Below, one piece after another: positions 3,050 to 64,000 of a stretch of 64,000 nt of DNA. The translations under genes were made by a program, and so were the position numbers. Each line of letters starts with the position of its first letter. The stretch's first letter is position 1. A model generated the notes under the pieces. It saw only the letters and a list, made by a program, of their open reading frames with translations. It did no database searches and had not been told where the DNA came from. The stretch spans positions 436,380-500,379 of the forward strand of contig OZ246416.1 in NCBI GenBank assembly GCA_965231095.1. The letters run 5' to 3'. This stretch comes from an uncultured Gammaproteobacteria bacterium (GTDB lineage Bacteria; Patescibacteriota; Patescibacteriia; XYB2-FULL-38-15).

Positions 3050-3051
3050 CC

Positions 3052-3086
3052 GTTAATTGTTAACTGTTAATTGTCAATTGTTAATT
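3052..3086. repeat. Tandem 7-bp repeat GTTAAYTG x5 filling the entire spacer between two GT genes
   Basis: Sequence gttaattg ttaactg ttaattg tcaattg ttaatt, lying between the stop at 3088 and the start at 3049. Confidence 0.6.
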
Positions 3087-3087
3087 A

Positions 3088-4629
3088 TTATTTCCTCGCC
3101 TTCTCCGTCACCCAAAACCCTAAATATTTTCCAAGCATCAGTCTTGTTTGCGCTTCCACGGCTGGGATTGAACCAAATAAAATCAAAGAAATCGGAAGCA
3201 ACGCCCATTGGGCAAGCATGATAATAAATTTAAACGGACTCTGATTTTTTGGCCGCGGAGGAAGTAAAAATAAAAATAAAATCGCGGAAACAACCATCCC
3301 AAGCATGGCGGCGGTCAGGAGCCACTGCAGGACAAGCGGCGCGGTCTGAAAAAACGCCGTTGTTCCAATCTTATCTTTTCCAACCCAAAGCGGCAATTTG
3401 CTCAAAACAAACATCAGGATCGGCGCGGTTGCCCAAGAATACATCCCCTCTCCCAGATTCCAAAGATATTTAATTTTTTTCCAAAAAGGAATTTTTGGCA
3501 CGGCGATTTCTCCGCTATCAGTCTTCAATGTCCCGCGAGAAAAATGCCAAACCATATATGGAAAATGCTCCACTCCCCAAGCCCAACGCCGCTGTTGTTT
3601 ATAAAGATTAACCAAGCTTTTCCAGGGGGTCTCGGCCATTACCGTATCCATGGAAACCGGAACATACATTGGCACAACTTCAAACTCCCCGCCATAACGG
3701 ATAAAACATTGTAAAAAAATTCTTGAATCATCAGTGACAATATCTTTCTGCCAAAAATCAACATCAACTAACGCCTTGAAAGCGATGCTGTGCGAAGAAA
3801 AAGTAAAAAGCCGATCGGGTTTTGCAAGTTCTGTTAGCAACCAAAAAGTTGTGCCAAAGGCCGCGACGCGCATCAGGGACATTGAATCCCAGATATTATT
3901 ATTGTAGAGCGCCACCGGCTGAAAGGCCGCCCGCTCCCGCCCGGGATGCGTGATATATTTATATGCCAGGCACGAAAAATATTCCGGATGCACGCAAGTA
4001 TCGCTATCGAAATAAGAAACAATAATTTTTTCATAAGAAATTTTAAGTTCGTCAATCAATTCTTTGGCGCGAAAACCGGCCCAGTGCGCGTTTGCCCCCT
4101 TGCCCTTAATTTCTCCAACCAAATTATCCGGATGCACAGTAGTAAGCAACCGAAAAAAATTATTACCGAATTCCTTTTTAATTTCCTCCACATTTTTTAA
4201 AAAATTTTCTTTATTTCTTTCTTCGCCGGACAAAACCACTATCATCTTATCTTTTGAATAATTTGAAGCTATCAAACTTTTAAACGTGCAACGCAAAACT
4301 TCAAGTGGTTCTTTGGAGGTCGGCAAAATTATCAAATGATAATAATTCTGCCAATCCGGCAATTCTTGAACTTTTTTCCACCAATCTGTCTTTACATCTT
4401 TTTTAAAACGCCGCCAAGAAATTGCCATGTAAAAAACGAAATACAGCACGCGGAAAAGCCAATAAATACAAAAAATTATCACGAAATAAATTACCCAAAG
4501 CGGTTTCCAAAAAGAAAGCAAAATAGCCAAAATAAAAGTAACCCAGACGAGCGCGCCTGGAATAATTTCTAACATTCTATATTTTGTCCTGTCGGTAATC
4601 TTCATAAGGTTGATTACGGCAAAATTCAA
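3088..4629 (-). CDS. Integral-membrane processive GT2 (cellulose-synthase-like, QxxRW motif)
   Basis: 513 aa with multiple N- and C-terminal TM helices. Central GT2 domain with D,D,D residues and a QQRRWAWG motif (QxxRW of processive beta-glycosyltransferases). Confidence 0.6.
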   Translation of the reverse strand: MNFAVINLMKITDRTKYRMLEIIPGALVWVTFILAILLSFWKPLWVIYFVIIFCIYWLFRVLYFVFYMAISWRRFKKDVKTDWWKKVQELPDWQNYYHLIILPTSKEPLEVLRCTFKSLIASNYSKDKMIVVLSGEERNKENFLKNVEEIKKEFGNNFFRLLTTVHPDNLVGEIKGKGANAHWAGFRAKELIDELKISYEKIIVSYFDSDTCVHPEYFSCLAYKYITHPGRERAAFQPVALYNNNIWDSMSLMRVAAFGTTFWLLTELAKPDRLFTFSSHSIAFKALVDVDFWQKDIVTDDSRIFLQCFIRYGGEFEVVPMYVPVSMDTVMAETPWKSLVNLYKQQRRWAWGVEHFPYMVWHFSRGTLKTDSGEIAVPKIPFWKKIKYLWNLGEGMYSWATAPILMFVLSKLPLWVGKDKIGTTAFFQTAPLVLQWLLTAAMLGMVVSAILFLFLLPPRPKNQSPFKFIIMLAQWALLPISLILFGSIPAVEAQTRLMLGKYLGFWVTEKARK

Positions 4630-5499: not shown

Positions 5500-5811
5500 T
5501 TATTTTATGTGTTTTTTGACATCACTCCATTTTGTTTTCAAATCTTCCACAACCGCCTCAACCTGCGTTTTGGCCATATTTTTTCTTTTACCATACTCCT
5601 TCACCACTTTTTCCACGACCTCATCGTATTTTTCTTTGCTTATCACTTTCATCTTCCCAACCGCTTCCAAAATTTTGGCAGTGAGCTCCGGATACTTCAT
5701 TTTAAATTCTTCTTGCCGCGTCTTGCCGGTCTTTTTTGTGGTGAAAAGCGCGACGGCCGTACCAATCAAGGCTCCAAGAAGAGCGCCCTTCATAAATGTG
5801 TTTTTACCCAT
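5500..5811 (-). CDS. YtxH-like (DUF948) small membrane protein
   Basis: 103 aa. N-terminal glycine-zipper TM helix KGALLGALIGTAVALFTTKKTGK followed by a charged coiled-coil tail. A terminator hairpin AAGTCC...GGACTT plus T-run lies downstream at ~5447-5480. Confidence 0.45.
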   Translation of the reverse strand: MGKNTFMKGALLGALIGTAVALFTTKKTGKTRQEEFKMKYPELTAKILEAVGKMKVISKEKYDEVVEKVVKEYGKRKNMAKTQVEAVVEDLKTKWSDVKKHIK

Positions 5812-11159: not shown

Positions 11160-12074
11160 TTAAACTTTCAAGTACCGGCCAACCGCCAGGGTACTGGTCA
11201 CCATATTTAGAAGCACGACGCCGACAAACTGCCACCCGAAAATCTGTAAAAAATTATTTGAAAAATACCCGAGCAAGTTGAATTCCGAGCCGCCGAAAAA
11301 TCCGGCGAGGTATGGCTCGGCAAAACCGATCGCGGGGTATGTAATTAAAACCGTGAAAAGCACGGCGAAAATTCCGTAAAAAATTCCGCTCGCGACGTAA
11401 GGCGCCCGGACAAACCAATTGGCCGCGCCGACAAGTTTCATTACCCCGATTTCCTCGCGATGCGTGTAAATTGTCATCCGGACCGTATTAAACCCAATCA
11501 AAACCGCAATCACGGCAAAAAGTCCGGCTACGCCAAAACCGGTTGTCTTAGCTTTTTCCGAAATAGAATCGATTTTTTTAATCACCGCTTCGTGGTCTTC
11601 AAAATTTTTCTCTTGAATAATGCTCTCGTATTGCGCGTCGTCAAAAACTTCCAAAATTTCCGGGTAGTCGGCGGTGTCATGTGCCCGAATTACGAGCGTC
11701 GCGCCCAAAGGATTCTCCCCCACCTCTTCAAGCGATTCTTTAATCACCGCGTCGTTGGCATGTTTTTTTTCAAATTCCCGAAGCGCCTCTTCCGGCGAAA
11801 CGTAAACCACGTCTTTCACCTCGGACAAACTCAAAAGATATGATTTAATATTTCCAATCTCGCTTTCCGCCACTCCCGGCTTGAAATAAATACTGACATC
11901 AATTTTATTTTCCACTTCCGCCACCGCGGTTTTCGTCAAAAAATTCAAAGTGATCAAAAAATTTATGGAAACTAAAGTCAAAACTAAAACCACGATCGTG
12001 GCCGTGGAAAGCCAAAAATTTCTCCAAAAATCCTGCGAAGAGAATTTTAAAATTTTGAGTAACGCGGAAAACAT
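11160..12074 (-). CDS. ftsX: Cell division permease FtsX
   Basis: 304 aa. N-terminal TM, large periplasmic loop, three C-terminal TM helices. Immediately downstream of ftsE. Confidence 0.75.
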   Translation of the reverse strand: MFSALLKILKFSSQDFWRNFWLSTATIVVLVLTLVSINFLITLNFLTKTAVAEVENKIDVSIYFKPGVAESEIGNIKSYLLSLSEVKDVVYVSPEEALREFEKKHANDAVIKESLEEVGENPLGATLVIRAHDTADYPEILEVFDDAQYESIIQEKNFEDHEAVIKKIDSISEKAKTTGFGVAGLFAVIAVLIGFNTVRMTIYTHREEIGVMKLVGAANWFVRAPYVASGIFYGIFAVLFTVLITYPAIGFAEPYLAGFFGGSEFNLLGYFSNNFLQIFGWQFVGVVLLNMVTSTLAVGRYLKV

Positions 12075-12077
12075 AAT

Positions 12078-12758
12078 TTACAATACATATTTTCCCACTT
12101 CCTGATCGCTGATAACTATCCCCTGCTCAAGCGTGACAACTCGGCGCCGCAGAGAATTTACCAGCTCGCGATTATGGGAAACTAAAATAACGGTCGTGCC
12201 AAACTCATTTATTTTTAAAAGCAAGTCGGCGATTTCTCTTGTGTTTATGGAATCCAAATTCCCTGTCGGCTCATCAGCCACTAAAATTTTCGGCCGGTGA
12301 ATAAGAGCGCGGGCAATGGCGACTCTTTGCTGTTCGCCGCCGGAAACTTGCCGCGGATAGCGTTCAGATTTTTGATCCAAGCCAACAATCCTTAAAACCT
12401 GCGGAACGATTGTTTTTATTCTGTGCGACGGCGTGCCGCAAACTTCCAGAGCAAAAGCGACATTTTCAAAAATAGTTTTCTTCGGCAAAAGTTTAAAATC
12501 CTGAAAAATAACTCCTATCTGCCGCCGAAGTGTCGGCATTTCCGAACGCCTAATTTTCGTAATATCCCAATCCCCAACTAAAATTTTCCCGCGGGTCGGG
12601 CGCTCTTCCGCGGTCAAAAGTTTTATAAGCGTCGTTTTCCCGGTTCCGGATTGGCCGACAATGGAAACAAACTCTCCGGCGTCAATTTTTAAATTAACAT
12701 CCGCAAGAGCCGTAATGTTTGGAGGATAAATTTTTTCTATGCCTCGAAACTCAATCAT
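12078..12758 (-). CDS. ftsE: Cell division ABC ATPase FtsE
   Basis: 226 aa. Walker A GQSGTGKTT, ABC signature VSGGEQQRVAIARAL, Walker B ILVADEPT. TATAAT lies 9 nt upstream of the ATG, suggesting a leaderless transcript. Confidence 0.85.
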   Translation of the reverse strand: MIEFRGIEKIYPPNITALADVNLKIDAGEFVSIVGQSGTGKTTLIKLLTAEERPTRGKILVGDWDITKIRRSEMPTLRRQIGVIFQDFKLLPKKTIFENVAFALEVCGTPSHRIKTIVPQVLRIVGLDQKSERYPRQVSGGEQQRVAIARALIHRPKILVADEPTGNLDSINTREIADLLLKINEFGTTVILVSHNRELVNSLRRRVVTLEQGIVISDQEVGKYVL

Positions 12759-15314: not shown

Positions 15315-16688
15315 CTAATTCGCATGTTTATTTATTTCCACCATTGTTTTCAGAATATCCCGCACTTTTTCCCGGTCGTCCCAGGGAATTTTTTTGTTGT
15401 TGGCCACACAAATCGCCTGCTCCGATCCTTTGCCGGTAATAATCACCAGATCACCTTCGCGCGCGAGACTTAAAGCTTTGGCGATTGCTTCGCCACGATC
15501 TAAAATTTTAAATAAATTTATATTTTCCACCTTGCCTGTTGCCCCAACGGCTACCTGTTTTATAATTTCTTCCGGATTTTCATCGTATGGATCTTCATTC
15601 GTAATAATTATAATGTCAGCATTTTCCGCGGCAATCTTTCCTAAAATCGGTCGGCGAGATTTATCGCGCCCGCCGCCGGCTGAACCTAACACATGAATAA
15701 TCTTGGAATTAGGAATTATAAATTTTGAATTATGAATTGTTTCATATAGTTGCCTCATGGATTCTGGCTCGGGAGCATAGTCCACGAGCACCTTAAAATT
15801 CTGCCCTTCGTTAATAAATTCCATCCGGCCAGGAACTCCGGAAACTTTTTCCAATGCGCCAGAAATCACCTCAAGTGACAAACCTTGCGATAAACCGACC
15901 GCCGCAGCCGCTAACGCGTTATAAACATTAAACTCGCCAAGAAGATGAATTATGAACCGTGAACCGTGAACTGCAAACAGTGAACCAGCCGAGTTCAACT
16001 CTACATTTTCCGCTTCCACAATTTTAGAAGTTGGGGTTTGGAATTTATTTGGGATTTGCAATTTTGAATTTGTAATTTTATAACCGTATTTTTCGTCCGC
16101 CGAAAAACTCGCAAAATATTCCGCATACTCATCATCCAAATTTACCACACTCACCTTCGGCACAACCTTTCCATCAATCACTTTCTCCGATTTTGCCGTC
16201 AAATGTCGGAAAAATTTTCCCTTGGCTTTTTTATAATTTTCAAATCCCCCGTGGGCTTCAATATGCTCCGGAGTTAAATTGGTAAAAACCGCCACGTCAT
16301 AATTCACACCCAAGTGGCGGAATTGTTCCACGCCCTGCGATGAAGTCTCAATCACCGCATATTTACACCCGACGCGTACCATCTCGCGCAACATTTTTTG
16401 CAAAGCAAACCGGCCGAGCATGGTCATCTTTTTTTTATTCAAATATTCCTCGCCGGCGATTTTAAAACCAACCGTGGAAGTCGCGCCGACTTTAAATCCC
16501 GCGCCCTCAAACATTTTGGCGATCAAATGCACGGTCGTTGATTTTCCGTTCGTGCCCGTCACGCCGATCACCACCATTTTATTTGACGGAAAACCATAAA
16601 AAATATTCGCCGCCAGCGCGAGCGTCTTATGATACCATCGAAGCAAAAATCCGGGAATAAATTTTTTGATTAATTCTTTTATATTCAT
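15315..16688 (-). CDS. murE: UDP-N-acetylmuramoyl-L-alanyl-D-glutamate--2,6-diaminopimelate (or L-Lys) ligase MurE
   Basis: Recalled alignment to E. coli MurE. GVTGTNGKSTT P-loop; IETSSQGVEQ...VFTNLTPEHIEAHGGFENYKKAK matches VSSHGL...[23 protein letters not shown]; C-terminal GGGRDKSRRPILG...ITGKGSE. Start overlaps the murD stop (ATGA). Confidence 0.85.
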   Translation of the reverse strand: MNIKELIKKFIPGFLLRWYHKTLALAANIFYGFPSNKMVVIGVTGTNGKSTTVHLIAKMFEGAGFKVGATSTVGFKIAGEEYLNKKKMTMLGRFALQKMLREMVRVGCKYAVIETSSQGVEQFRHLGVNYDVAVFTNLTPEHIEAHGGFENYKKAKGKFFRHLTAKSEKVIDGKVVPKVSVVNLDDEYAEYFASFSADEKYGYKITNSKLQIPNKFQTPTSKIVEAENVELNSAGSLFAVHGSRFIIHLLGEFNVYNALAAAAVGLSQGLSLEVISGALEKVSGVPGRMEFINEGQNFKVLVDYAPEPESMRQLYETIHNSKFIIPNSKIIHVLGSAGGGRDKSRRPILGKIAAENADIIIITNEDPYDENPEEIIKQVAVGATGKVENINLFKILDRGEAIAKALSLAREGDLVIITGKGSEQAICVANNKKIPWDDREKVRDILKTMVEINKHAN

Positions 16689-18055
16689 TTTATCTTTTTT
16701 ATTTCTTTCAAAAACTGATCCCCTCGGTCAAATTCGTTTTTAAACATTCCAAAACTCGCGGCAGACGGTGATAAAAGCACTACATCACCGCGCGTGGCAA
16801 ATTTATGCGCGATTTCCACGGCTTCACGCATGCTGCGGACGACGGTAATTGGTAATTGGCCCGCCTCGCCTCGACGGCGAGTCGAGGCTGGGTAATTAGT
16901 AATTAGTAGTTGTTTTTGAAGTTTGGGTGTCGCAGTGCCAGATAGAAGTATAACTACTTTAGTATATTTTTTAATCACTGGCGCCAAATTTTTAAAATTC
17001 AAATTTTTATCGGCTCCGCCGCAAATCAAAATAATTTTTTTCTCACCAAGGGCATGGAGCGCGGCAATTGTCGCTTCGGGCATGGTCGCGGTTGTATCGT
17101 TATAAAATTTTACCCCGCGAACCTCGCGCACAAATTCCAACCGGCCGGGCGCCCCACGGAAATTCTCTACGGCTTTTTTAATCCGCGCCATGGACAATCC
17201 TAAAATCTTCCCCACTGCCACGGCCGCGGCAACATTTTCCAAATTATGTTCTCCTAAAATTTTTAAATTCCACCCGCGCGGGACATCACTCGCCGAAAAC
17301 CAAATAACTTTTCCCGCGGCACGCTTAGCCATTTTTTTACACCACGCACAATTTTTATTCAAAACCAAAAAATCATTTTTTGTCTGATTGGCAAAAATCG
17401 CTTCTTTATCGCGAACATATTTTGCCATGTTGTTTTTGTAATAATTTTGATGATCGGGAAAAATATTTGTCACTACAGAAATTTCTGGACTGATTTTTAA
17501 ATCTCGCCAACCCTGGAGTTGCCAACTTGATAATTCCAAAACCGCCAAATCATTTTTTTTTACTTTATCCAAAAGCGGGAGCGTCGCCATACCCCGGACG
17601 TTGCCGGCAAAGTATGTTTTTTTACCAGTCGCCCGCGCAATTTCATAAATTAAATTTGAAGTTGTGGTTTTCCCTCGCGTTCCCGTAATACCAATTATTT
17701 TACAACCCGCCTCACGGCCAAACAACGCATCATCCATAAAAATCTGCACACCATTTTTTTTGGCTTCAGCGATAAACGGCGAGTCAAGCGGCACGCCCGC
17801 GGCCTTGAAAACTATATCAACATTTTTAAAATCTTCCAGTTGATGTTTCCCCAAAATAAACTTCACCGGACGCGCCCCCTTTTTATTTTTCAAAAAATTT
17901 TTTATTTCCAAAACTGACGGCGCCAAATCTTTCGCGCTTTTTAAATCGGTCACGGTCACCCTTGCACCTTTTCCCACTAAAAATTTTACAACCCCAACTC
18001 CTCGGCCCAAAAGGCCAAGTCCCATCACGGTTATTTTTTTATCTTTAAAATCCAT
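16685..18055 (-). CDS. murD: UDP-N-acetylmuramoylalanine--D-glutamate ligase MurD
   Basis: VMGLGLLGRGVGVVKFLVGKG N-terminus, LELSSWQL, GEHNLENVAAA, DVVLLSPSAASFGMFKNEFDRGDQF all parallel recalled E. coli MurD. Carries an extra ~14-aa insert encoded by a palindromic micro-repeat (see findings). Confidence 0.9.
   Translation of the reverse strand: MDFKDKKITVMGLGLLGRGVGVVKFLVGKGARVTVTDLKSAKDLAPSVLEIKNFLKNKKGARPVKFILGKHQLEDFKNVDIVFKAAGVPLDSPFIAEAKKNGVQIFMDDALFGREAGCKIIGITGTRGKTTTSNLIYEIARATGKKTYFAGNVRGMATLPLLDKVKKNDLAVLELSSWQLQGWRDLKISPEISVVTNIFPDHQNYYKNNMAKYVRDKEAIFANQTKNDFLVLNKNCAWCKKMAKRAAGKVIWFSASDVPRGWNLKILGEHNLENVAAAVAVGKILGLSMARIKKAVENFRGAPGRLEFVREVRGVKFYNDTTATMPEATIAALHALGEKKIILICGGADKNLNFKNLAPVIKKYTKVVILLSGTATPKLQKQLLITNYPASTRRRGEAGQLPITVVRSMREAVEIAHKFATRGDVVLLSPSAASFGMFKNEFDRGDQFLKEIKKIK
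16844..16906. repeat. Palindromic micro-repeat element inserted in-frame in murD
   Basis: GGTAATTGGTAATTGG - GCCTCGAC ggcga GTCGAGGC - GGGTAATTAGTAATTAG: direct GTAATTRG flanks around an 8-bp-stem palindrome. Encodes an extra ~14-aa loop (ITNYPASTRRRGEAGQLPI). Confidence 0.5.
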
Positions 18056-18566: not shown

Positions 18567-18992
18567 TTAAATTTTATGTTTCAAAAAAAATTCATTCGCC
18601 TTTTCTAAAACTTTTTTTCCATTTGGAAAAGTAATCTGCTCCATGGCCTCCGCATAAGGCAGCCACTTGAAATCAATGTGTTCGTCCGAAAGCTTAACTT
18701 CTGCCGTTTTTGTTTCTGCCAAATAAAAAATCGCTTCTTTATAAATCGTCTGCCCGTCTTTTTTATAAAACCAAAAAATTTTCTCCCGAAAATTCGGAAG
18801 AAAAATCAAATCAGCAATTCCTGTTTCTTCTTTTGCTTCGCGCACGACCGTTTCTTCTTCTTTTTCCCCAATCTCAATCGCTCCCCGCGGAAAATCCCAG
18901 TGCCCCGACTCGTAGCGCAAAAGCAAATATTTTATTTCGCCGTCTCGCCTAAAAACCACGGCGCCGGCAGATGTCTCTTTTGGCATACCCAA
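18567..18992 (-). CDS. NUDIX hydrolase
   Basis: 141 aa. Nudix box GAIEIGEKEEETVVREAKEETGI (GX5EX7REUXEEXGU). Confidence 0.7.
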   Translation of the reverse strand: MGMPKETSAGAVVFRRDGEIKYLLLRYESGHWDFPRGAIEIGEKEEETVVREAKEETGIADLIFLPNFREKIFWFYKKDGQTIYKEAIFYLAETKTAEVKLSDEHIDFKWLPYAEAMEQITFPNGKKVLEKANEFFLKHKI

Positions 18993-19017
18993 TTACTGGT
19001 TACTAATTACTCAATTT

Positions 19018-19590
19018 CTACTCCCTCATCTTCACGTCGTAGAGAATTTCTTCCGCTCGCCGCAAATTTTGTTTTGCCTGATCATATTTTGTCCGCAAAT
19101 ATCCGGTCAAATTCATTTTAATCAATTCGCCTACAACATCGCGAACGCCGGCGACATATTCTTCAACTTTTTTAAACTTTTTCTCCGTGGCCGCGAGCAC
19201 CGCTTTTCGAACAAGCTCTCCGGTGAAATCACACATCCCGCCCAAATAAGTGTCAGCGTCTATTTCCTGCTCTTTTATAAAATCAATCTTCCCGTCTTCC
19301 AAAAATCTGCCGAAAAATTTTGCTTCCACATACTCTTCAAGCGCCGCGCGATACGCGCCCTCGTAGCGCAACTCCGGCTCTTGTTTAAACTTTTTTTCCA
19401 AATCCTGAAAAATTTTTTCCACTTCGGCGAGCAGCGCATTTCCACCCCTCAGGTCATTCCTATGAAAAGCGAAAATCGCCTGCTTTGCCCTCATCAAGGC
19501 TTCGTTAGAAACGCCGATCAACTTTCTTCTTTCCTCTCCGTAAAACTCAAAATCTTTTTTTAAACCCTGAAACAATTTTTGATTGATCAT
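19018..19590 (-). CDS. All-alpha hypothetical protein, possibly translin-family-like
   Basis: 190 aa, helical and charged; TYLGGMCDFTGELVRKAV resembles the Y..G..D..GEL.R translin motif. Weak call. Confidence 0.3.
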   Translation of the reverse strand: MINQKLFQGLKKDFEFYGEERRKLIGVSNEALMRAKQAIFAFHRNDLRGGNALLAEVEKIFQDLEKKFKQEPELRYEGAYRAALEEYVEAKFFGRFLEDGKIDFIKEQEIDADTYLGGMCDFTGELVRKAVLAATEKKFKKVEEYVAGVRDVVGELIKMNLTGYLRTKYDQAKQNLRRAEEILYDVKMRE

Positions 19591-21866: not shown

Positions 21867-21995
21867 ATCACAACCACAAAAGTAATAAAAAAACTAAAGG
21901 CCTTGTCAAACTTAAATAACCTTGTTATCATTATATCAAAATCAGGCATATATAGCTATAATTTTACATTTTGCATTTTTAATTTCTAATTTTTT

Positions 21996-27262: not shown

Positions 27263-28462
27263 CTAATTTTTAATGGGTGACATCTTGCGTAATTTTTCCA
27301 CAATGCCCGGCAACACTTTTATTAAACGACTCACTTCTTCTTCATTATTATTTTTTCCCAAAGTAACGCGCAAACTCCCGTGGGAAACAATCGGAGAAAT
27401 TCCCATCGCCGAAAGAACGTGTGATGGCTCAAGCGACCCGGAGGAACAGGCCGAGCCGGTAGAGATGGCGATTCCTTCCATATCAAGCATCAATAAAATA
27501 CTTTCCCCCTCAACATTTTTGAAACAAAAACTCGCATTTCCGGGAACGCGTTTTTCCGGATCGCCGGATAAAATCGCGGCGGGAATTTTTTGCAGCACGC
27601 TCTTGATTAATTTATCGCGTAATTTTTTTATTCTTAAATTTTGACTTTTGGCTTTTGGCTTTTGACTTAACAACTCTATCGCCTTTCCCATTCCAACAAT
27701 TCCCGCAACATTCTCCGTTCCCGAACGGATTCCTTGTTCCTGATGTCCGCCAAAAACAATCGGCAAAAGCGGCGTCCCACTCCGTAAAAACAAAACCCCT
27801 ACGCCCTTTGGCCCATAAATTTTATGCGCCGAAAGCGAAAGCATATCTACTCCCAAAAAATCCACCCGGCAATCGCAAAAATTTGCCGCCTGAACCGCGT
27901 CGGTATGAAAATAAATTTTTTCCTGCTTCCCCCGGCCGGCATTAATTTTTTTAATCAATTCTCCAATCTCCCGAATGGGCTGGATTGTGCCGACTTCATT
28001 GTTGACGTACATCACGGAAACTAAAATTGTTTCCGGCCGAATCGCTTTTTCCACCTCACTCACTTTGACTAAGCCGGTCTTGGTCACCGGCAAATACGAC
28101 ACTTCGACTTCTTCCTTTTTTAATTCGCGGCAAACTTCAAGAACGGCCGGATGTTCAATCGCCGAAGTAATAACATGTATTTTTCTTTTGGGGTCAAGCG
28201 CCCGTGCCCGCCGGAGAAATCCTAAAATCGCGAGGTTGTTGCTCTCGGTCGCCCCAGAAGTAAAAATAATTTCTTTTGGCGCGCAGTCCAAAAATTTCGC
28301 TACCGCCTCGCGCGCCCCCTCTACTCCCGCCCGCGCCGCCTGCCCAAAACTATGGAGCGACGAAGCATTGCCAAAATCATTTTTTAAATACGGCAACATC
28401 GCCCGCAAAACCTCGGGATCTATCGGAGTAGTTGCTGAATGGTCAAAATATATTCGCTTCAT
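27263..28462 (-). CDS. iscS: Cysteine desulfurase (IscS/NifS, class V aminotransferase)
   Basis: 399 aa. MKRIYFDHSATTP N-terminus, PLP-Lys context SLSAHKIYGPKGVG, catalytic loop SSGSACSSGSLEPSHVL. Confidence 0.85.
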   Translation of the reverse strand: MKRIYFDHSATTPIDPEVLRAMLPYLKNDFGNASSLHSFGQAARAGVEGAREAVAKFLDCAPKEIIFTSGATESNNLAILGFLRRARALDPKRKIHVITSAIEHPAVLEVCRELKKEEVEVSYLPVTKTGLVKVSEVEKAIRPETILVSVMYVNNEVGTIQPIREIGELIKKINAGRGKQEKIYFHTDAVQAANFCDCRVDFLGVDMLSLSAHKIYGPKGVGVLFLRSGTPLLPIVFGGHQEQGIRSGTENVAGIVGMGKAIELLSQKPKAKSQNLRIKKLRDKLIKSVLQKIPAAILSGDPEKRVPGNASFCFKNVEGESILLMLDMEGIAISTGSACSSGSLEPSHVLSAMGISPIVSHGSLRVTLGKNNNEEEVSRLIKVLPGIVEKLRKMSPIKN

Positions 28463-36329: not shown

Positions 36330-36483
36330 ACAATCAATTATTTAACAATTATTACAGTTTAGCCGTTTTTTTAAAAAAATACAAGAAATGCCTCATTTAT
36401 TATAAAAAAATAAATTACCAATTTCCAATTACTAATTTCCAATAAATTTTCCATGGCCAAAATTGATAATTGAAAATTGATAA

Positions 36484-37653
36484 TTGAAAATTAAAAATAT
36501 GACTCTTCCCTACCGCCGCCTCGTTTACATCTCATTTATCGTAATTTTTCTCATCATCACTCCGATTGTGATCTTATACACTACCGGATATCGTTATAAT
36601 TTTCAAACAAACAAAATTCAAAAAACAGGAATTCTTATTTTAAAATCAAACCCGACGGGAGCAAAAATTTATCTGAACGGAAAATTAAGAACGGAAACCA
36701 CTCCGGCCAGAATCGCGAATCTCCTGCCCGACGACTACGACATAAAAATTGAAAAAGAAAATTTCCACCCCTGGCAAAAAAAACTCCCCGTCCAAAGCAG
36801 CCTGACCATCTTCGCGGAAAACATCTCTCTTTTCGAAAAACTTCTGCCCGCCAAAATAGTTGAAACAAACTCTGAATTATTTAGCCTCGCGCCTAATAAA
36901 GAAAAAATTATTTATCTTGACAAAAAAGAAACTGGCGGAGAAGTCTGGCTTCTAAATTTTAGAAATAATAAAAACAATTTAATTTATAGAATTTCCGAAG
37001 ACAAAAATGAGATTGTTAATTTGGAGTGGAGCAACGACAATCAAAAAGTTCTGATTACCGTTAATTTCTCCGGCGCGGCGGAATCTCGTAAATATATTAT
37101 GGTAAACACTGGGAATGGCGAAGTCTCTGTTTACCAAAAGCTCTCTGATTTTTATTTTACTTTCCGGGGCGTTCCCATAAATTCAGCAGATGCCCATCTG
37201 CTCCCGGATCTGGATGTTGCCGCGGGATACTCTGGGGTGGTTGCCATTCTCGACAAGAATACAAAAAAACTTTCCGTGGTTCGACCGCCGGCGATGGATG
37301 TTCTTTTTGAAACGGGAGCTGACCGAATGGTTTGGTCGTCTGACGGAAAAAAACTTCTCTACACCATTGATTTTGAAATTTGGATTTATGATTTTTCCGC
37401 TGAGGAAAAAAAATTTATCAGCCGCTACGGCCAAGAGATAAAAAAAATAGATTGGGTTAACGAAAACTATATTGCCGCGCTTCTGGGCGGAGCTGTAAAA
37501 ATTATGGAACTCGATGAACGCGATCAACGAAACGTTATAGACATTATAACCCCGGAAGAAATTAGTAATTTTTTTATTGATCCCGCCAAACAAAGCATTT
37601 ATTTTTCCGGCGTGATTGGAAACAAAAAAGGAGTTTTTGAACTCCCATATTAA
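36484..37653 (+). CDS. Membrane-anchored PEGA-domain protein with TolB-like beta-propeller
   Basis: 389 aa. N-terminal TM, PEGA-like ILKSNPTGAKIYLNGKLRTETTPARIANLLPDDYDIKIEKENFHP, then WD40-like repeats (MVWSSDGKKLLYT). Confidence 0.45.
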   Translation: MKIKNMTLPYRRLVYISFIVIFLIITPIVILYTTGYRYNFQTNKIQKTGILILKSNPTGAKIYLNGKLRTETTPARIANLLPDDYDIKIEKENFHPWQKKLPVQSSLTIFAENISLFEKLLPAKIVETNSELFSLAPNKEKIIYLDKKETGGEVWLLNFRNNKNNLIYRISEDKNEIVNLEWSNDNQKVLITVNFSGAAESRKYIMVNTGNGEVSVYQKLSDFYFTFRGVPINSADAHLLPDLDVAAGYSGVVAILDKNTKKLSVVRPPAMDVLFETGADRMVWSSDGKKLLYTIDFEIWIYDFSAEEKKFISRYGQEIKKIDWVNENYIAALLGGAVKIMELDERDQRNVIDIITPEEISNFFIDPAKQSIYFSGVIGNKKGVFELPY

Positions 37654-51833: not shown

Positions 51834-51872
51834 AACATTAACTTTTAACAGTTAACAATTAACATTTAACTT

Positions 51873-52538
51873 TTATTTTATTGATCTTCCTAAAAATAAA
51901 TCAAATAAAATTTTTAAATAATCAGGCAGGCGCTGGCCGCGGCGAATTTGCGGGGAAAAATATTTTACTGTCACCGGAACTTCCTCGTAGCGCAAACAAT
52001 GGTGGCCGATTTTTTCTAAAATTTCCGAGGCGTGCGCCATGCGGTTTTGTTCAATTGTAATTTTCTCCGCCGCTTCGCGCGAAAAAGCCCGGAAACCATT
52101 ATGAGTGTCAGACAAATTCAGTCCGGAAGTTAACCGGGTAAAAATTGTTGCGCCTTTCAAAAAAAATTTCTTAACCAAAGGAATTTCCGATTTCATAAAA
52201 CGCGCTCCCAAAACAACATCAGCTCGACCTTCCGCCACCGGCCGAACAACATTGTTAATTTCTTCCGCGACAAATTGCCCATCCGCGTCGTAAGTCACAA
52301 TAACATCGGCCTGGCGCAAAAGCGCAATTTTTTTCCCGGTTTCGAGCGCCGCTCCCTGGCCGCGATTTAGAAAATGGGAATAAACAATCGCGCCCGCCCT
52401 TTTGGCGTGCTCCATTGTGTGATCCGCCGAACCATCATCAACCACTACAACTTCCGTCACATACTTTTGCACCTCCATCACAACGTCGGCGATTGTTCTT
52501 TCCTCGTTGTAAGCGGGAATTATCGCAATTGTTTTCAT
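51873..52538 (-). CDS. Polyprenyl-phosphate glycosyltransferase (GT2, DPM1/ArnC-like)
   Basis: Start trimmed to MKTIAIIPAYNEERTI...VVVVDDGSADHT. DAD motif (YDADGQ) and C-terminal amphipathic region. Confidence 0.75.
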   Translation of the reverse strand: MKTIAIIPAYNEERTIADVVMEVQKYVTEVVVVDDGSADHTMEHAKRAGAIVYSHFLNRGQGAALETGKKIALLRQADVIVTYDADGQFVAEEINNVVRPVAEGRADVVLGARFMKSEIPLVKKFFLKGATIFTRLTSGLNLSDTHNGFRAFSREAAEKITIEQNRMAHASEILEKIGHHCLRYEEVPVTVKYFSPQIRRGQRLPDYLKILFDLFLGRSIK

Positions 52539-53665: not shown

Positions 53666-55885
53666 TTATCTTATCACTCCAACATTTATTCCTCCCTTAA
53701 AATCTTGGCCAAAAGCAAAAAATTCTTTACGCAAAAATCCCTTATTATTATATACCTTAACATGCGGCCCGCCGCCCGCTCCGGCGCCAACAATAATTTC
53801 CGAAACTTTATCTCCATCCAAATCACCCAAAGCCAATGTCACTCCTCCGACTAAATTAACAAACGGAGAAAATTTTAATTTCAAAGTCATATACTGGCCG
53901 TAAACCCTAACCTCGCCGCTCCCGCTCATCTTGCTTACCGCCAGCTCGGAAATTTTATCCCCGTCAATGTCGCCGACAGAAATTCGAACGCCGCTTCTGT
54001 GTTCTTTTTCGAAAGCTAAAAATTGAGTATTTAAATTTCCTTTGGAATCAAAAACTTTAATCATGGACTCCAGCCCATTGCCCGGCGCCGTAACTATGTC
54101 TGCTCGCCCGTCACTATCAATATCGCCAACCGCAACATTTACTCCCCCGCGAAAAGTTGTGGCATAGGCCATAAATCCGCCGACGGCCGTTCCGTCCTGG
54201 CGAAAAATTCTAACATGCGGCCCGCCGCCCGGCCCCGCGCCGGTAATAATTTCGCTTTTCCCGTCACTATCAATATCGCCAACCGCAACATTTACTCCCC
54301 CGCGAAAAGTTGTGGCATAGGCCATAAATCCGCCGACGGCCGTTCCGTCCTGGCGAAAAATTCTAACATGCGGCCCGCCGCCCGGCCCCGCGCCGGTCAC
54401 GATTTCACCAACTCCGTCCCCGTTTAAATCACCCGAAGACAAACTCACACCGCCTAAAAATTTTTCCGGATAAACCAAAAAACTTTTTATAAAAGTGGAA
54501 TCTTCTTTAAAAATTTTTACTTCTGGTTTTAAACCAGCGAGTGGGCTAACAATTATATTCCCCTTTTGAAGTGCAAAAGGAGAACTCTCCGTTGTCAAAT
54601 ATGCCGCCTCAATTGTCCGGCCAATATTTAATCTCCCCTTTCCCAACTTGCCAACATAATCGGGATTTTGAGCGTCAATATTATCAGCATTCACTGTTAG
54701 AAGATTTCTAATCTCCGGCACGCCAAGACTTGGATTTAAAGATTTTATAAGCGCCGCGGTTCCGGCAACAATCGGCGCGGCTACCGATGATCCTGACCAT
54801 CCGCCACTGTAATATTCCGTAAATTGCGGCATACCGGGATTGTACGCAACCGTGCCCCAAATATCAATTCCCGGCGCGGCCACATCAACGCACTTTGTTC
54901 CGTAATTTGAAAATTCTGCTTTTTTGTCGTCTTTATCCGTCGCGGCCACCCCGATCACAATATTTTCTCCGTCGCCCCCGTAATAACAAACCGGGTAAAG
55001 CGGCTCCTCATCCAAATTTTTTCCCGAGCTGCCATAATTCCCCACTGCGGCCACAACTACAATGCCGGCTTTGTATGCCCTCTCCAATGCCAAAAATAAA
55101 CTTTTACTAAAACCTGATCCAATAAAACTTAAATTGATAACGTCCACTCCTTTTTCCACCGCGTAATCAATTCCTTCAATCACCGTTAAAACATCACCCG
55201 AGCCGGAAGAATCTAAAACGCGGATTGGCATAATTTTTGCCTCCCAAGCCACGCCGGCCGTCCCTCGCGAATTGTTCCCCACCGAAGCGGCTACTCCAGC
55301 GACGATTGTTCCATGATCAATTCCTTCTTTGGTAAACCACCACTCTTTAAAATCCGGTCTGGCGTTATTGTCGCCCGCGACAAAATCCCAACCATTCACA
55401 TCGTCAACATAAATATTTCCATCATTATCCACTCCATCGTTTTTGACTTCTCCTGGATTAACCCAAATATTATCCGCGAGATCAGGATGATCGATATCCA
55501 CCCCAGAATCCAAAACGGCGATTACCGTATCTTTGTTGCCCGAAGTTTTTTCCCAGCCACTCCACACATGGACTTTATCCAAGTACCATTGCTTGGAAAT
55601 AAAGGGGTCGTTTGAAGCAATTGTCTCGGCTGTCATTTTATAATTCGGTTCGGCAAATTCCACCTCCGGCCTATTTTTATATTTTAAAATTGCCTCCGAC
55701 ACGCTCTCGCCTGAATCTAAAACTATTTTTTCCACCCGTTCCTGATTTTTGAATTTAACCAAAATCTCGTCCGCTTTGTATGGCAGAATATTTTTTTCCA
55801 AAGCCAAAACCCCGGGACCAAAAATCGTGAAAATTAAACTAAAAATTGTCGCCAAAATGATATTTTTGCGCATAGATTTATTCAT
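53666..55885 (-). CDS. Secreted subtilisin-like serine protease (S8) with C-terminal FG-GAP/VCBS-type repeats
   Basis: 739 aa. Catalytic D (VAVLDSGVDIDHPDL), H (HGTIVAGVAAS) and S (GTSVAAPIVAGTAALIKS). Then at least five GDxDGDG...GAGPGGGPHV repeats, including a near-identical 153-bp tandem duplication. Confidence 0.8.
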   Translation of the reverse strand: MNKSMRKNIILATIFSLIFTIFGPGVLALEKNILPYKADEILVKFKNQERVEKIVLDSGESVSEAILKYKNRPEVEFAEPNYKMTAETIASNDPFISKQWYLDKVHVWSGWEKTSGNKDTVIAVLDSGVDIDHPDLADNIWVNPGEVKNDGVDNDGNIYVDDVNGWDFVAGDNNARPDFKEWWFTKEGIDHGTIVAGVAASVGNNSRGTAGVAWEAKIMPIRVLDSSGSGDVLTVIEGIDYAVEKGVDVINLSFIGSGFSKSLFLALERAYKAGIVVVAAVGNYGSSGKNLDEEPLYPVCYYGGDGENIVIGVAATDKDDKKAEFSNYGTKCVDVAAPGIDIWGTVAYNPGMPQFTEYYSGGWSGSSVAAPIVAGTAALIKSLNPSLGVPEIRNLLTVNADNIDAQNPDYVGKLGKGRLNIGRTIEAAYLTTESSPFALQKGNIIVSPLAGLKPEVKIFKEDSTFIKSFLVYPEKFLGGVSLSSGDLNGDGVGEIVTGAGPGGGPHVRIFRQDGTAVGGFMAYATTFRGGVNVAVGDIDSDGKSEIITGAGPGGGPHVRIFRQDGTAVGGFMAYATTFRGGVNVAVGDIDSDGRADIVTAPGNGLESMIKVFDSKGNLNTQFLAFEKEHRSGVRISVGDIDGDKISELAVSKMSGSGEVRVYGQYMTLKLKFSPFVNLVGGVTLALGDLDGDKVSEIIVGAGAGGGPHVKVYNNKGFLRKEFFAFGQDFKGGINVGVIR
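54107..54396. repeat. Near-identical ~153-bp tandem duplication inside the S8 protease gene (one FG-GAP repeat unit duplicated)
   Basis: Two copies of a ~135-bp identical core (cgtcactatcaatatcgccaaccgcaacatttactcccccgcgaaaag...gcccgccgcccggccccgcgccggt) starting at ~54108 and ~54261. Confidence 0.7.
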
Positions 55886-58042: not shown

Positions 58043-61000
58043 TTAATAAATTGACGTCAAGGCACTCTCCCCACCAATAATGTCCGCGCCCGGGGCGTAG
58101 TAAAGAGTTGTAGGGATTGCAAAAACGTACTCACTGCGGAAATTATTGGCGGCAAATCCAGCGGTAGTAATTTTTCTTTTTTCCGCGCCCTGGATGTAAT
58201 AGATTTCAGTTGTGCCGGAATATTGGACTAACGCGCCGGTGGGGTGAGCGTCGGTTGAAATATCTGAACCAAAGGAATAGTCGCCCCAAAAAGCCAGCGG
58301 CACATCAATTATTTTTTTTGCCCAATCCGCGCCGTAAAGAGTTTTGATTCTTACCTCGGTTGGAATCCAACGGAGAAGGCCGTTCGGTTCAACCGCGTAA
58401 ACTTTTGAATCAGTATCAATTTTTACAAGCACGGTTCCCGGGCGAACCGTAACGTTTTTGCCCAAAGGAATGGCCTGGAGTTCTGCCGCCGTGACGCTTC
58501 TGACGTTGCTCCAATCCGGATACCACGTCTTGTAAGTTTTTTCATTTGGAAAAATGTGGCGTTTATTGTCCGAGCCGTAATAGTAAACAGTCGTGCTCAT
58601 TGGACTCTTCAGAAGATCGCCTGCTACAAGCCCGGCCGAACTTCCCGCTCCCGGCGGGGTCTCTGCTCCCGGCGGCGGAGGCGTGGTATAAGTGATGGTG
58701 AAATCTGCGTCGGAAATATCAGAAGCAACAAAAACATTACTTGCATCATACCCCTCAACTTTAACTTTCACCGTGCCGCTCGGAATATTAGGAACTGTCC
58801 AAGAATAGGTGCCGTCACTATTTTCATCGGTGGCAATTGTGTACGGAAAATTTACGCCCCGATCAAGAGAATAAAATAATTTAACTTTTGTGATTGCCGA
58901 ACTGGTGGAAGACCAAGTAATATTTTTATTTGAACTGCCAGCCCAAACTTCGCCGCCGTTTGGAGATAAAACTGTAACAGAAGCCGGCAGCCCCGCTCCC
59001 CCGCCTCCGCTGCCTCCGCTTGTCGCCGCGACAGTCGTAAAGGTGTAAGGATCGGCAACGACGACGGAGCTAACATCAAGAGTTCCGTCTCCTGTAGCCG
59101 CCGAATTAATTGACCCTTGGACTAAATCAATTGAGTATATTTGTAAACCAGCCCAAGGATCATGAGAGGCAAAAGTCACAACTGTATCGCTGGCCGTCCA
59201 AGTACCATTAACGCTGCCGAGAGTAAAGGTTGGAGTTCTGCCAAGAGTGGTTGTTGTAATATCAGTCGTGGTCATGGCTTCAGAAAAAGTGATGGAGAAG
59301 CTGGCGTCCAGGGCAACACCTGTCGCAGCATCAGCCGGAGAGGTGGACATCACGATCGGATCTGCTTCATCGTTTTCCGTACCCACGGCGTCAGCAAGAG
59401 CCATCTGGTTTAAAGCCGGTGAAGCATCTGTCAGACCCAAGGTGTTGTGGTGCAAGTAAACAAGTTCCGTACCGGTAATGCCGGTTGTGACGGTCAGACG
59501 ATAATATTGATCATTGGCATCCGCGTCGGCTCCGGGGTAGACAACGGTCGTGCTCTCGCCAGAGACCGCTTCTTCGCCAGTGGCATTATCAGTTGAATCG
59601 TTATCAAGTTCAAAGTTAGCGGCGACGACAGAGGTGTCCGTGATATTTTCACTGAAAGTTATATCAACGGCGTTTACGTCGCCGTCACCGTCGGTGTCTA
59701 CTGAGTAGGTGTTTAAGACAACCGGGGCAGCCCCGTCAATACCGGTAGGACTTACCTCACCGTTCGCCATCTCAAGAGGAGTTAAGGCCTCATCATCAAT
59801 ATCCATGAGAACTCCGGCCAGGACGTATGTCGCTTCAACCGTGATTGACGTACTACCCGCGGTACAACCAGTTAAGTCGGAAAGGGTCATGGTGCTTACG
59901 CTGTTTGCGGTATAGTCATTAGTTGCGTCAACAACGCAAGAATCGGAAAGGGTGATTCCATCAAAACCATCAGCCGCTCCGTTTGTGTCTGTGATATCTA
60001 CTGTCTCTGAGAAAGTAAGAACAACTCGGTCTACTGTTCCATCTCCGGTTTGGTCTGAAGATGTTGAAGTGAGAATGGCAGGTGTGGCGGCGTCAGCGGC
60101 CGTAACGGGCGCGGCAAAAGAAGGAGCTTGATTTAAATTACCGGCATCAATCACGCTCCCCTTGGGAGCGATATTGGAATAATTAATCGTTGGGTCCGTT
60201 CCGCCGCCGGTTACATCAGAAGTGGCCGCGACTGTCACTTGGATATCATTTCCCGAAACCGCGCAAGCAGATGGCGTGTTTGCCCCCACCACTGTGCCAG
60301 CGGTGGGAATTGACCAATCAGCCGCTTGGAAAGTACAGGATAAACTCGCTTCGGCAGTCATTGTCACGTCGATTCTGTCAACCGTGCCATCGCCGTTCGC
60401 GTCTTTGTAGGCGGCCGAAACCGGACGCGGCGCGGCGCCGTCAGTTAGAGTTTGTGGCCCGGTAGTTCCGGCTGGATTTAGAGCGGTATCTTTAACGCTG
60501 CCATTGGCATCACCATTATCATAAGAAATAGTCGGAGCGCTTGTCGCGCCAGTTCGGTTTGGATCGGCAGTTACCGTCACATTGATAACCTGATTTCCCC
60601 CTGCGTCATCCGCCGCCGCAGAAAACGATGCGTTCAAATCTCCGCCAACAATTGTCCAATCATCCGTCGTGCTTCCTGTCATTGTTACATTTTCCGACCA
60701 CCAAGTTTGAAATGTCTCGACTGAACCATCCGAACTGTTATCGAGATACATCTGAATTCCCCCATCACCGCCCAAAACCGGCGCCGCGCCATCAGCAACA
60801 GTTGCCTGAGTTTGGCTACCCTGCAGGAGAGTTGTGTTCGCGCTTCCATCCACCAGAGAAAAAGCGTTTTGAGTGGAAATCGCCAAAAGAGTAGTAGCGT
60901 CGTAGGTAGCGATAACACTTGATTCCGTACCAAGATTAATATTGGTAAAAGTGACTGAACCAGTAACTAGGTCCGTGGCATCAACGCCGAAAACCGCACC

Positions 61001-63040: not shown

Positions 63041-64000
63041 TTAGTAAATTCTCGTCAAGACAGTTTCTTCGGCAACAAGCGGCGTGCCCAAAGTATAAGT
63101 GATGCTCGTTGGCACAGAAAGAACATTGGATAACTGGAATTTATTGGCGGTGAAACCGGCCGTAGAAATCAAGCGCTTCTCTGCCCCCTCTACATAATAT
63201 TTATCAGTCGTGCCGGTGTATTGAATCACGGCGCCGGTCGGATGTTTGTCGGTTGTGATATCGCTCCCAAAAGTATAATCAACCCAGAAAACCAGCGGCA
63301 CATCAATTATCTTTGTCGCCCAAGCAGAGCCGTAAAGTGTAGAGGCGCGAGCTTCGGTCGGAACCCAGCGAAGCAAACCACCCGGCTCAACCGCGTAGAC
63401 CTTGGGATCTGTTTGGATTTTTAAAAGTACTGTGCCCGGCCGGACAGTGACGTTATGGCCCAAAGTAATTCCCTGCAATTGCGAGGCGGGAATATTTTTT
63501 ATGCCAGAAAAATCAACATACCAACTCTTGTAGGTTTTTTCATTTGGGAAAAGATGTCGCTTGCCGTCAGAACCGTAATAGTAAACTGAAGTGGAAAGCG
63601 AACTCTTAATCAAATCTCCCACGCTCAAAGAAACCGGAGTTTCCCCAACTGGCGGAGTTTCGCCCGGAGCCGAGAAAACAACGGAAACTGTTTGACTCAA
63701 AACCACGCCCGCGGCGGTGGCCGTATAAGTTGAAGTTCCGGCCGTGCTTGATTTAACTTCAAAAGTGGCTACGCCGTTTGCCCCGGTTGTGCCGGTCACG
63801 GTTGTAATTGTGTCAGAAGATCCGCGAGAAGAAGCAAGAGTTACAACTTTTCCGGAGAGAAGATTGGAACTCGCGTCTTTAACGGTTACTGTAACAGTTG
63901 ATTTGGAGGTGCCATTGGCCACGACCGAGGTTGGCGTAGCGGAAACCGTTGAATTTGCGGTGGAGACAGCCGAGGCGGAATAAGTAATGGAAAAATTCGC
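63041..64000 (-). CDS. Ig-like repeat surface protein with the shared C-terminal domain (paralog 3); N-terminus beyond window end
   Basis: The reading frame stays open from 63922 to 64000 (checked codon by codon, no stop). Big-like segments plus C-terminal YYYGSDGKRHLFPNEKTYKSWY..., ~60% aa identity to paralog 2's C-terminus. Confidence 0.5.
   Translation of the reverse strand, partial: ANFSITYSASAVSTANSTVSATPTSVVANGTSKSTVTVTVKDASSNLLSGKVVTLASSRGSSDTITTVTGTTGANGVATFEVKSSTAGTSTYTATAAGVVLSQTVSVVFSAPGETPPVGETPVSLSVGDLIKSSLSTSVYYYGSDGKRHLFPNEKTYKSWYVDFSGIKNIPASQLQGITLGHNVTVRPGTVLLKIQTDPKVYAVEPGGLLRWVPTEARASTLYGSAWATKIIDVPLVFWVDYTFGSDITTDKHPTGAVIQYTGTTDKYYVEGAEKRLISTAGFTANKFQLSNVLSVPTSITYTLGTPLVAEETVLTRIY

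Follow-up and report, generated by a model that had tools for sequence, protein, structure and literature searches.

Palindromic DNA carried in frame within genes has been known mainly from Rickettsia, and hairpin mini-elements lying in heptamer arrays from Nostoc. The small dispersed repeats (SDRs) of Nostoc and related cyanobacteria are reportedly dispersed hairpins of 21–27 nt that encode no transposase; they are said to lie often within tandem heptamer repeats and sometimes to be nested in other palindromes. Rickettsia palindromic elements (RPEs) are found in frame in unrelated housekeeping genes, where the peptide they add is judged to suit both the fold and the function of the host (PMC10969869). 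Repetitive extragenic palindromic (REP) elements are short, GC-rich, imperfect palindromes, non-autonomous and thought to be moved by a hairpin-recognising enzyme (PMC3116915). The GC clusters of yeast mitochondria (e.g., GC42), which are GC-rich palindromes of ~30–50 nt in AT-rich genomes, are exchanged between species and are mobile by an unexplained mechanism (PMC4478555). Here we describe a 33-nt GC-rich hairpin that lies in frame within murD, the gene for UDP-N-acetylmuramoyl-L-alanine--D-glutamate ligase, on a 64-kb stretch of contig OZ246416.1 (positions 436,380–500,379; the whole stretch is hereafter called the window). What is new is that in-frame residence in genes and association with heptamer arrays are joined in one 33-nt element, and that this element is found in the candidate phyla radiation (CPR)/Patescibacteria.

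The host gene occupies 16685..18055 on the minus strand and encodes 456 aa, as established from the open reading frame (ORF) list, homologues and Pfam. Its product has the domain set of MurD (PF21799, MurD-like_N; PF08245, Mur_ligase_M; PF02875, Mur_ligase_C). At E below 1e-20 the protein has 7,948 homologues, the named ones being MurD of Patescibacteria and 'Candidatus Falkowbacteria'; to judge from these matches, the host is a Falkowbacteria-like CPR/Patescibacteria bacterium. The insert, CCAGCCTCGACTCGCCGTCGAGGCGAGGCGGGC in the sense of the gene, was delimited at 16859..16891 (minus strand) by ortholog alignment and empty sites, and encodes PASTRRRGEAG (residues 389–399). Its boundary is ambiguous by 1 nt, a single C, such that 16860–16892 is equally possible. 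In an alignment of 45 MurD sequences with 53–100% identity, most close relatives read ...KLQKQLLITNY|QLPITVV..., while the window protein (P0001) reads ...LLITNY-PASTRRRGEAG-QLPITVV... (peptide across the insert, ...ITNYPASTRRRGEAGQLPIT...). The 11 residues occur only in P0001, and 43 of the 44 other aligned orthologues have no insert at this point, so the insert is lineage-specific and not an ancestral loop. This alignment had been proposed as a check in an earlier note on the same DNA, which put the excess at ~14 residues; the real excess is 11, since ITNY and QLPI also occur in orthologues that lack the hairpin.

At the DNA level, the filled site reads CTAATTACTAATTAC-CCAGCCTCGACTCGCCGTCGAGGCGAGGCGGGC-CAATTACCAATTACC. 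The matching site in locus L002 (P0009), whose protein is 82% identical, is empty and reads CTAATCACTAATTAC|CAATTACCAATTACT, its 3′ side also being given as CAATTACCAATTAC. The site is also empty in the DNA of L048 and L049. Filled and empty sites differ in length by exactly 33 nt and the flank is not duplicated; this comparison reveals no target-site duplication at murD, with at most the single ambiguous C. The nearest relative, P0002 (L001), carries a 21-nt hairpin, CTGCCTCGCCGGCAGGCGGGC (7 residues), at the very same point in murD, and this hairpin and the 33-mer have the loop CTCGCCG and the tail AGGCGGGC in common. P0001, P0002 and P0003 group together in a neighbour-joining tree, and the site in P0003 is empty. 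We would read the L001 hairpin as an older, common insertion that subsequently lost 12 nt in one lineage; alternatively, the two hairpins may be independent hits at a hot spot.

The insertion point lies in the centre of a TTACNNN array of period 7. An array scan placed its 5′ half, in the sense of the gene, at 16892..16909 (minus; CTACTAA TTACTAA TTAC), where it codes for LLITNY and has the invariant C of position -1 as its last base, and its 3′ half at 16841..16858 (minus; CAA TTACCAA TTACCGT), where it encodes QLPITV. Removal of exactly 33 nt restores the phase of the array, with 6/7 matches over the junction. In all relatives, those that lack the hairpin included, this MurD loop is likewise encoded by such an array, with four to five heptamers; because the hairpin-less ones already have it, the GTAATTRG flanks are not part of the insert. 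Several heptamer-derived 'alleles' of the loop are seen in the alignment and in L001, L002, L047, L048 and L049 (LLITNYQLPIT, LLVTRYSLPVT, LGIMNYELPIV, LQITNYKFPVI and others). Their distribution is scattered and does not track the protein tree, which suggests that the array evolves by concerted or convergent change at the DNA level.

Near-identical copies of the hairpin are dispersed among other CPR genomes. A scan of genome contigs, one genome per GTDB species, with the pattern GCCTCGACNNNNNGTCGAGGCGAGG returned 20 loci, 17 of which are canonical and lie in 13 CPR/Patescibacteria assemblies. Joint Genome Institute (JGI) metagenomes yielded 16 canonical and seven non-canonical, chance-like loci, some of them duplicating genome matches. 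Removal of duplicates left 23 distinct, near-identical sites for which both flanks are available and the flanks are unrelated. The positions that the pattern leaves free (5′ CCCA, loop TCGCC, tail CGGGC) are nearly invariant in the canonical copies too, and the sequences outside the 34 nt are unrelated. A covariance model scored the window element at 63.2 bits (16859–16892); over 348 kb it recovered one more, slightly diverged copy (L011 1037–1070) and nothing further. No second hairpin copy was found in the window by pattern search, GC-hairpin scan, GC-peak scan or covariance model, and the 33-mer had no real match among viral contigs, INPHARED phages or PLSDB plasmids. The earlier note had suggested a tiny dispersed family capable of in-frame insertion into an essential gene, and had proposed a search for copies of the palindrome. 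Such a family is seen at the 23 sites, but it is defined by the 33-nt hairpin, and its other copies are in other CPR genomes. Three non-canonical genome loci, in GC-rich Myxococcota, Vicinamibacterales and Acidimicrobiia, have other loops and flanks, look like chance matches and were set aside.

The host records are labelled Doudnabacteria, Nealsonbacteria, Paceibacterota, Parcubacteria and 'Saccharibacteria'. We rejected presence in Saccharibacteria on the strength of the record label, as the labels of the 'uncultured Candidatus Saccharibacteria' third-party annotation (TPA) metagenome-assembled genomes (MAGs) are unreliable. SecY of one such MAG (L011) is 77–78% identical to SecY of Liptonbacteria, and FtsK of another locus with this label (L022) is 81% identical to FtsK of a MAG labelled Doudnabacteria. 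The hosts are deeply divergent: two element-bearing TsaD proteins share 42% identity, while their elements match at 30/34 positions.

Spanning-ORF analysis and Pfam place 12 of the 23 sites, the window's included, in frame within intact housekeeping genes. Pfam-recognised hosts are a PIF1-like helicase, CCA-adding enzyme, iPGM, UvrA, CysRS, PGA_cap, the GyrA C-terminal domain, FemAB and MurD; another in-frame host is a 764-aa protein without a Pfam match. TsaD has been hit in two genomes at two different sites, and when the two proteins are aligned, each has a gap exactly where the other carries its element. Neither the strand of the host gene nor the frame is constant among the genic elements. 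The element has 79% G+C, forms a nearly perfect hairpin and comprises 11 codons without a stop in any of six frames (PASTRRRGEAG, QPRLAVEARRA, PSLDSPSRRGG, ARLASTASRGW, PASPRRRVEAG and PPRLDGESRLG), and it is owing to this length and freedom from stops that murD stays open.

The remaining copies are intergenic. One, between ftsK and a RhuM-Fic (toxin-like) gene, is orthologous in three related genomes (L019 4969–5002, L022 6983–7016 and L039 2764–2795). These copies share 31–33 of 34 bases and their FtsK proteins are 81% identical; part of the flanks is less well conserved than the element. At least four copies lie within a ~135-bp cassette of one Liptonbacteria-like MAG, which fills spacers such as L18|S5 and S5|L15 (L011 990–1092 and 1590–1700; L021 ~5560–5680; the end of L017). 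This cassette extends from directly behind the stop codon of the upstream gene to within a few bases of the next ATG, and a mini-ORF of 30–32 codons in it (e.g., MKKTNRKFKTVSDFPASTRRRGEAGDIRISNF) stays open even over a 3-nt indel.

Strong period-7 context is present at 10 of 22 sites, compared with 5% of control positions. Where it is present, deletion of exactly 33 nt, and not of 29–32 or 34–37 nt, gives the best continuity across the junction. The flanking heptamers vary by genome (AGATACT, TCTAAAT/AAATCCT, CAAAGAA, CAAATTA, CGAATTT and TTCGTGC; TTACTAA at murD), and as they differ between genomes, the array is the target and not part of the element. A logo of the 23 sites has C at position -1 in all of them, T at -4 in 18 (p = 7e-7) and T or A at -3 in 20, with C again at -8 and +7. 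The resulting target heptamer consensus is ATWNC|VA, the element being inserted directly behind the C, and TTAC|CAA at murD fits it. The copies in L009 and L014 are located within the loop of an existing palindrome.

As DNA, the insert folds stably, at -14.6 kcal/mol (z = -4.8), and its 13-bp stem is interrupted by one bulge and one mismatch; for the surrounding region as mRNA the value is -23.1 kcal/mol (z = -3.1). The hairpin can also pair in another register, as a perfect 8-bp palindrome, GCCTCGAC-N5-GTCGAGGC with loop GGCGA, which a pattern search located at 16868..16888 and which occurs once within the window. We rejected an intrinsic terminator at the site, where there is no terminator-like call; the flanks of the 23 copies contain no T-run. 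Rfam 15 at a permissive threshold gave only noise matches for the insert (E ~5–10) and no family at the element in 12 other loci. An AlphaFold2 model of MurD built from the 45-sequence alignment (pLDDT, the predicted local distance difference test, 88.2; pTM, the predicted template modelling score, 0.87) places the insert in the C-terminal domain as a loop between helix 376–385 and strand 403–406. Residues 391–400 are the only segment of the model with pLDDT below 50. This low-confidence loop is what the structural check proposed in the earlier note had anticipated, and the model suggests that MurD tolerates 11 extra residues here.

We think it probable that the 33-nt hairpin is an ultra-small selfish or neutral element, dispersed at low copy in CPR genomes and tolerated as a loop of MurD. 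We infer that it is, or recently was, mobile, that it was moved in trans, and that it has no function in MurD. At murD a discrete unit was added in the middle of an existing TTACNNN period-7 array, directly 3′ of the C of a heptamer that fits the consensus. Movement of the element would depend on a machine that acts in trans and is not encoded by it. Our preferred candidate for this mobiliser, offered as a guess only, would be a hairpin- or single-stranded DNA (ssDNA)-recognising enzyme of the HUH/Y1 type, as in IS200/IS605 and REP/RAYT, because there is no duplication, the element is a hairpin and insertion occurs 3′ of a short motif.

Several observations weigh against a selfish or neutral mobile element. 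Copy number is low, with one copy in the window and ~5–6 at most in any one MAG. All-against-all comparison of the ORFs in ~8-kb flanks of the 23 loci found no shared neighbouring gene, apart from one orthologous region, and tblastn with the Y1 protein of L002 found no Y1 transposase in the window or in any element-bearing locus examined. Orientation is unbiased with respect to both GC skew (10/24) and the strand of the host gene, which counts against a strictly lagging-strand ssDNA mechanism, as this would predict a bias. Near-identity over hosts with ~42%-identical proteins would be hard to reconcile with a purely selfish element, and requires either horizontal spread or a very conserved machine. 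The orthologous intergenic copy kept in L019, L022 and L039 could reflect function instead. The absence of a target duplication comes from the murD locus alone, and mobility would be read from the sites and not from observed population polymorphism or excision. No parent insertion sequence (IS) for the element was found in ~440 kb of loci.

The only Y1_Tnp (PF01797) gene found is that of L002 (3255–3788), between ftsW and murG; L002 lacks the element, and the window lacks this gene. The flanks of the gene carry inverted GGAGTTCA/TGAACTCC and small hairpins unrelated to the 33-mer, an arrangement in a CPR genome that resembles RAYT/REP.

A stronger reading is that the 33-mer is active, site-specific mobile DNA across deeply diverged CPR, moved by a conserved trans-acting machine into the centres of arrays (ATWNC|VA) and the loops of palindromes, and that the period-7 arrays are a DNA-level process that rewrites the loops of essential proteins. 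We hold this tentatively, as a possibility that we lean away from for now.

The main rival to the selfish or neutral element is a functional cis-element, in which the 33-mer is a conserved binding site or an RNA or DNA signal under purifying selection and the murD copy is accidental or exapted. Its role would be, for example, in mRNA processing or stability or in translational coupling, or as a site for a recombinase or partition protein. Near-identity in deeply diverged CPR genomes is what such a signal would show, and retention of the ftsK/RhuM-Fic copy in three genomes while part of the flanks diverged points the same way, as does the ribosomal-spacer cassette with its open mini-ORF. However, within the loops of unrelated essential proteins the copies are found in both orientations and in several reading frames, their position relative to genes is inconsistent, and terminator features are absent. 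The element is also lacking from most MurD orthologues and from the rest of the window, and the murD copy of the sister lineage (L001) appears to have decayed to 21 nt. On balance we consider a functional cis-element unlikely.

The earlier note had instead treated the whole of 16844–16906 as one 63-nt composite, a mobile MITE- or REP-like unit (MITE, miniature inverted-repeat transposable element) with GTAATTRG terminal repeats around the palindrome and further copies at 18995 and 36416. On the plus strand this segment is GGTAATTGGTAATTGG-CCCGCCTC-GCCTCGAC-GGCGA-GTCGAGGC-T-GGGTAATTAGTAATTAG, which divides into the units GGTAATT GGTAATT GG CCCGCCTC GCCTCGAC GGCGA GTCGAGGC T GGG TAATTAG TAATTAG; the transcription in the note had omitted nine bases, namely CCCGCCTC before the palindrome and T after it. 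A palindrome in frame in murD was correctly recognised, but the unit that inserted is the 33-nt hairpin, as the difference of exactly 33 nt from hairpin-less orthologues with a full heptamer array demonstrates. The recurrence of the GTAATTRG/CAATTAC units is likewise real: GTAATTRGTAATTRG with up to two mismatches occurs nine times in the window against 0.68 expected, a number reached by none of 100 shuffles, and the matches include sites near 18989–19010 and 36418–36439. These two places, however, have no hairpin and share only the heptamer units with the murD site. Pattern and array scans show the one to be an intergenic, AATTACT-like period-7 array (18991..19020), and the other to be a pair of arrays in inverted orientation (AATTACC-like and AAAATTG-like) that shortly precede an ATG (36413..36499); neither is a copy of the insert. 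One other genome does repeat a larger cassette of heptamers and hairpin in several spacers, yet the heptamers beside other hairpin copies are unrelated (AGATACT, TCTAAAT, CAAAGAA, CGAATTT), and a 63-nt mobile unit seems to us highly improbable. Scarcely credible is a local origin in murD, by template switching or array duplication, or an artefact of assembly or library. The insert does hold an internal tandem duplication (CGAGG CGAGG), and period-7 arrays are prone to slippage, the murE-like gene of L001 being split at one; but the same 33–34 nt recur at 23 independent sites, in assemblies that many projects produced, the reading frame is kept at every genic site, and a separate Logan assembly of SRR8863431 contains an identical murD, insert included.

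Period-7 arrays are a wider feature of this DNA. A match-fraction scan of the window found six strong arrays (3051–3093, 15944–15980, 21961–21994, 27632–27672, 36413–36499 and 51837–51879) against none in random sequence, and zero to two for other periods from 4 to 12. Weaker arrays are present at 15697–15738, 16037–16080 and 18991–19020. Most have an AATT-type core, and they are located both within genes and in spacers, one of them before a tRNA and one pair before an ATG. In the literature searched, the coverage of which was incomplete, we found no description of period-7 arrays in CPR and no published account of the 33-mer or of palindromic or heptamer repeats in these bacteria.

The neighbouring MurE-like ligase (15315–16688, minus) has a 13-residue, heptamer-encoded insert (LQIPNKFQTPTSK) that is absent from the L002 orthologue, and two further arrays in it substitute segments of equal length (the sites are 16037–16080, 15944–15986 and 15697–15738). 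In L001 an array of four AGATTCA units (~12050–12085) marks the exact point at which the MurE-like orthologue is divided into two ORFs; this could be a frameshift by 7-nt slippage, phase variation or an assembly error. Other MurD orthologues (L047 3001–4410, P0023; L048 3001–4452, P0017; also P0037) contain unrelated palindromic inserts, in frame in other loops. One of these is ~72 nt long (QGLRQAQAINLFPERAKRVEGSSK), and another, of 108 nt, has long terminal inverted repeats (VYPHTNK...GIGVGVY) and is RPE- or MITE-like. In CPR, then, small DNA of several kinds, palindromic or periodic, seems to build up in the parts of genes that encode protein loops. The window also contains, at 54081–54463, a 153-bp tandem duplication (92% identical) with a third, diverged unit, and a pair of dispersed repeats of ~500 bp (58138–58621 and 63136–63619; 72–73% identical, 4,998 bp apart). 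Both lie where the window becomes richer in GC, at its right end, and are probably repeated protein domains or paralogues.

These findings indicate that streamlined, uncultivated bacteria with genomes of ~1 Mb still host and tolerate probably selfish DNA within genes such as murD, gyrA, cysS, tsaD and uvrA. The precise boundaries, the target logo and the absence of a duplication provide a concrete pair of substrate and target with which to find the enzyme. The 33-mer and its six translations account for odd loops inserted in CPR protein alignments, and phylogenomic studies can either mask them or take them as rare genomic markers. A 7-nt shift of a period-7 array within a CPR coding region can split a gene, as in L001, which may bear on gene calling and protein evolution. 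Should the stronger, active-mobility reading hold, the element would be a tractable model in which both the 33-nt substrate and the heptamer target are defined, and could help to answer the decades-old question of how SDRs and mitochondrial GC clusters move.

Compared with described systems, the element behaves like an RPE, as an in-frame palindromic passenger in unrelated housekeeping genes that forms a surface segment, here a loop of MurD in the AlphaFold2 model. It is not a member of the RPEs, and a sequence relationship is not expected: RPEs are ~100–150 bp, comprise ten families, are confined to Rickettsia and encode a conserved peptide, whereas the present element is four to five times shorter, at 33 nt, and occurs in CPR in several frames and both orientations. 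REP elements and the REPIN-RAYT system share with it the short, GC-rich, imperfect palindrome. They are, however, extragenic, reach tens to hundreds of copies, usually form inverted doublets and have their own RAYT, while about half of the present copies are intragenic and all are low-copy singletons with no linked RAYT; the REP-like label of the earlier note fits the GC palindrome and little else. Nor does its MITE-like label apply. MITEs are ~50–500 bp, have terminal inverted repeats derived from a parent IS and generate a target duplication, and the element is one hairpin of less than 50 nt that shows no such duplication at murD.

IS608, of the IS200/IS605 family, has TTAC as its target. 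The element resembles this family, in resemblance only, in being a hairpin, in lacking a target duplication and in having inserted 3′ of a short motif (TTAC| at murD, T-W-N-C| in the logo). It differs in being a single 33-nt hairpin without separate left and right ends, without strand bias and without a Y1 gene near any copy. The GC clusters of yeast mitochondria are dispersed GC-rich palindromes of similar size, some of which lie within coding regions. Unlike the element, they are organellar and have putative target duplications, and the byp elements derived from them are skipped by the ribosome; 11 stop-free codons need no bypass. The SDRs, as they are reported, offer a lead in that they pair a tiny hairpin with a period-7 array, as 10 of 22 sites do here, and differ in length, sequence and host, and in that many copies of the 33-nt element are in frame in essential genes of CPR. 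The association of hairpin and period 7 in unrelated phyla, whether it arose in each or was kept, points to a common mechanism. All these comparators match the element in behaviour, and it belongs to none of their families.

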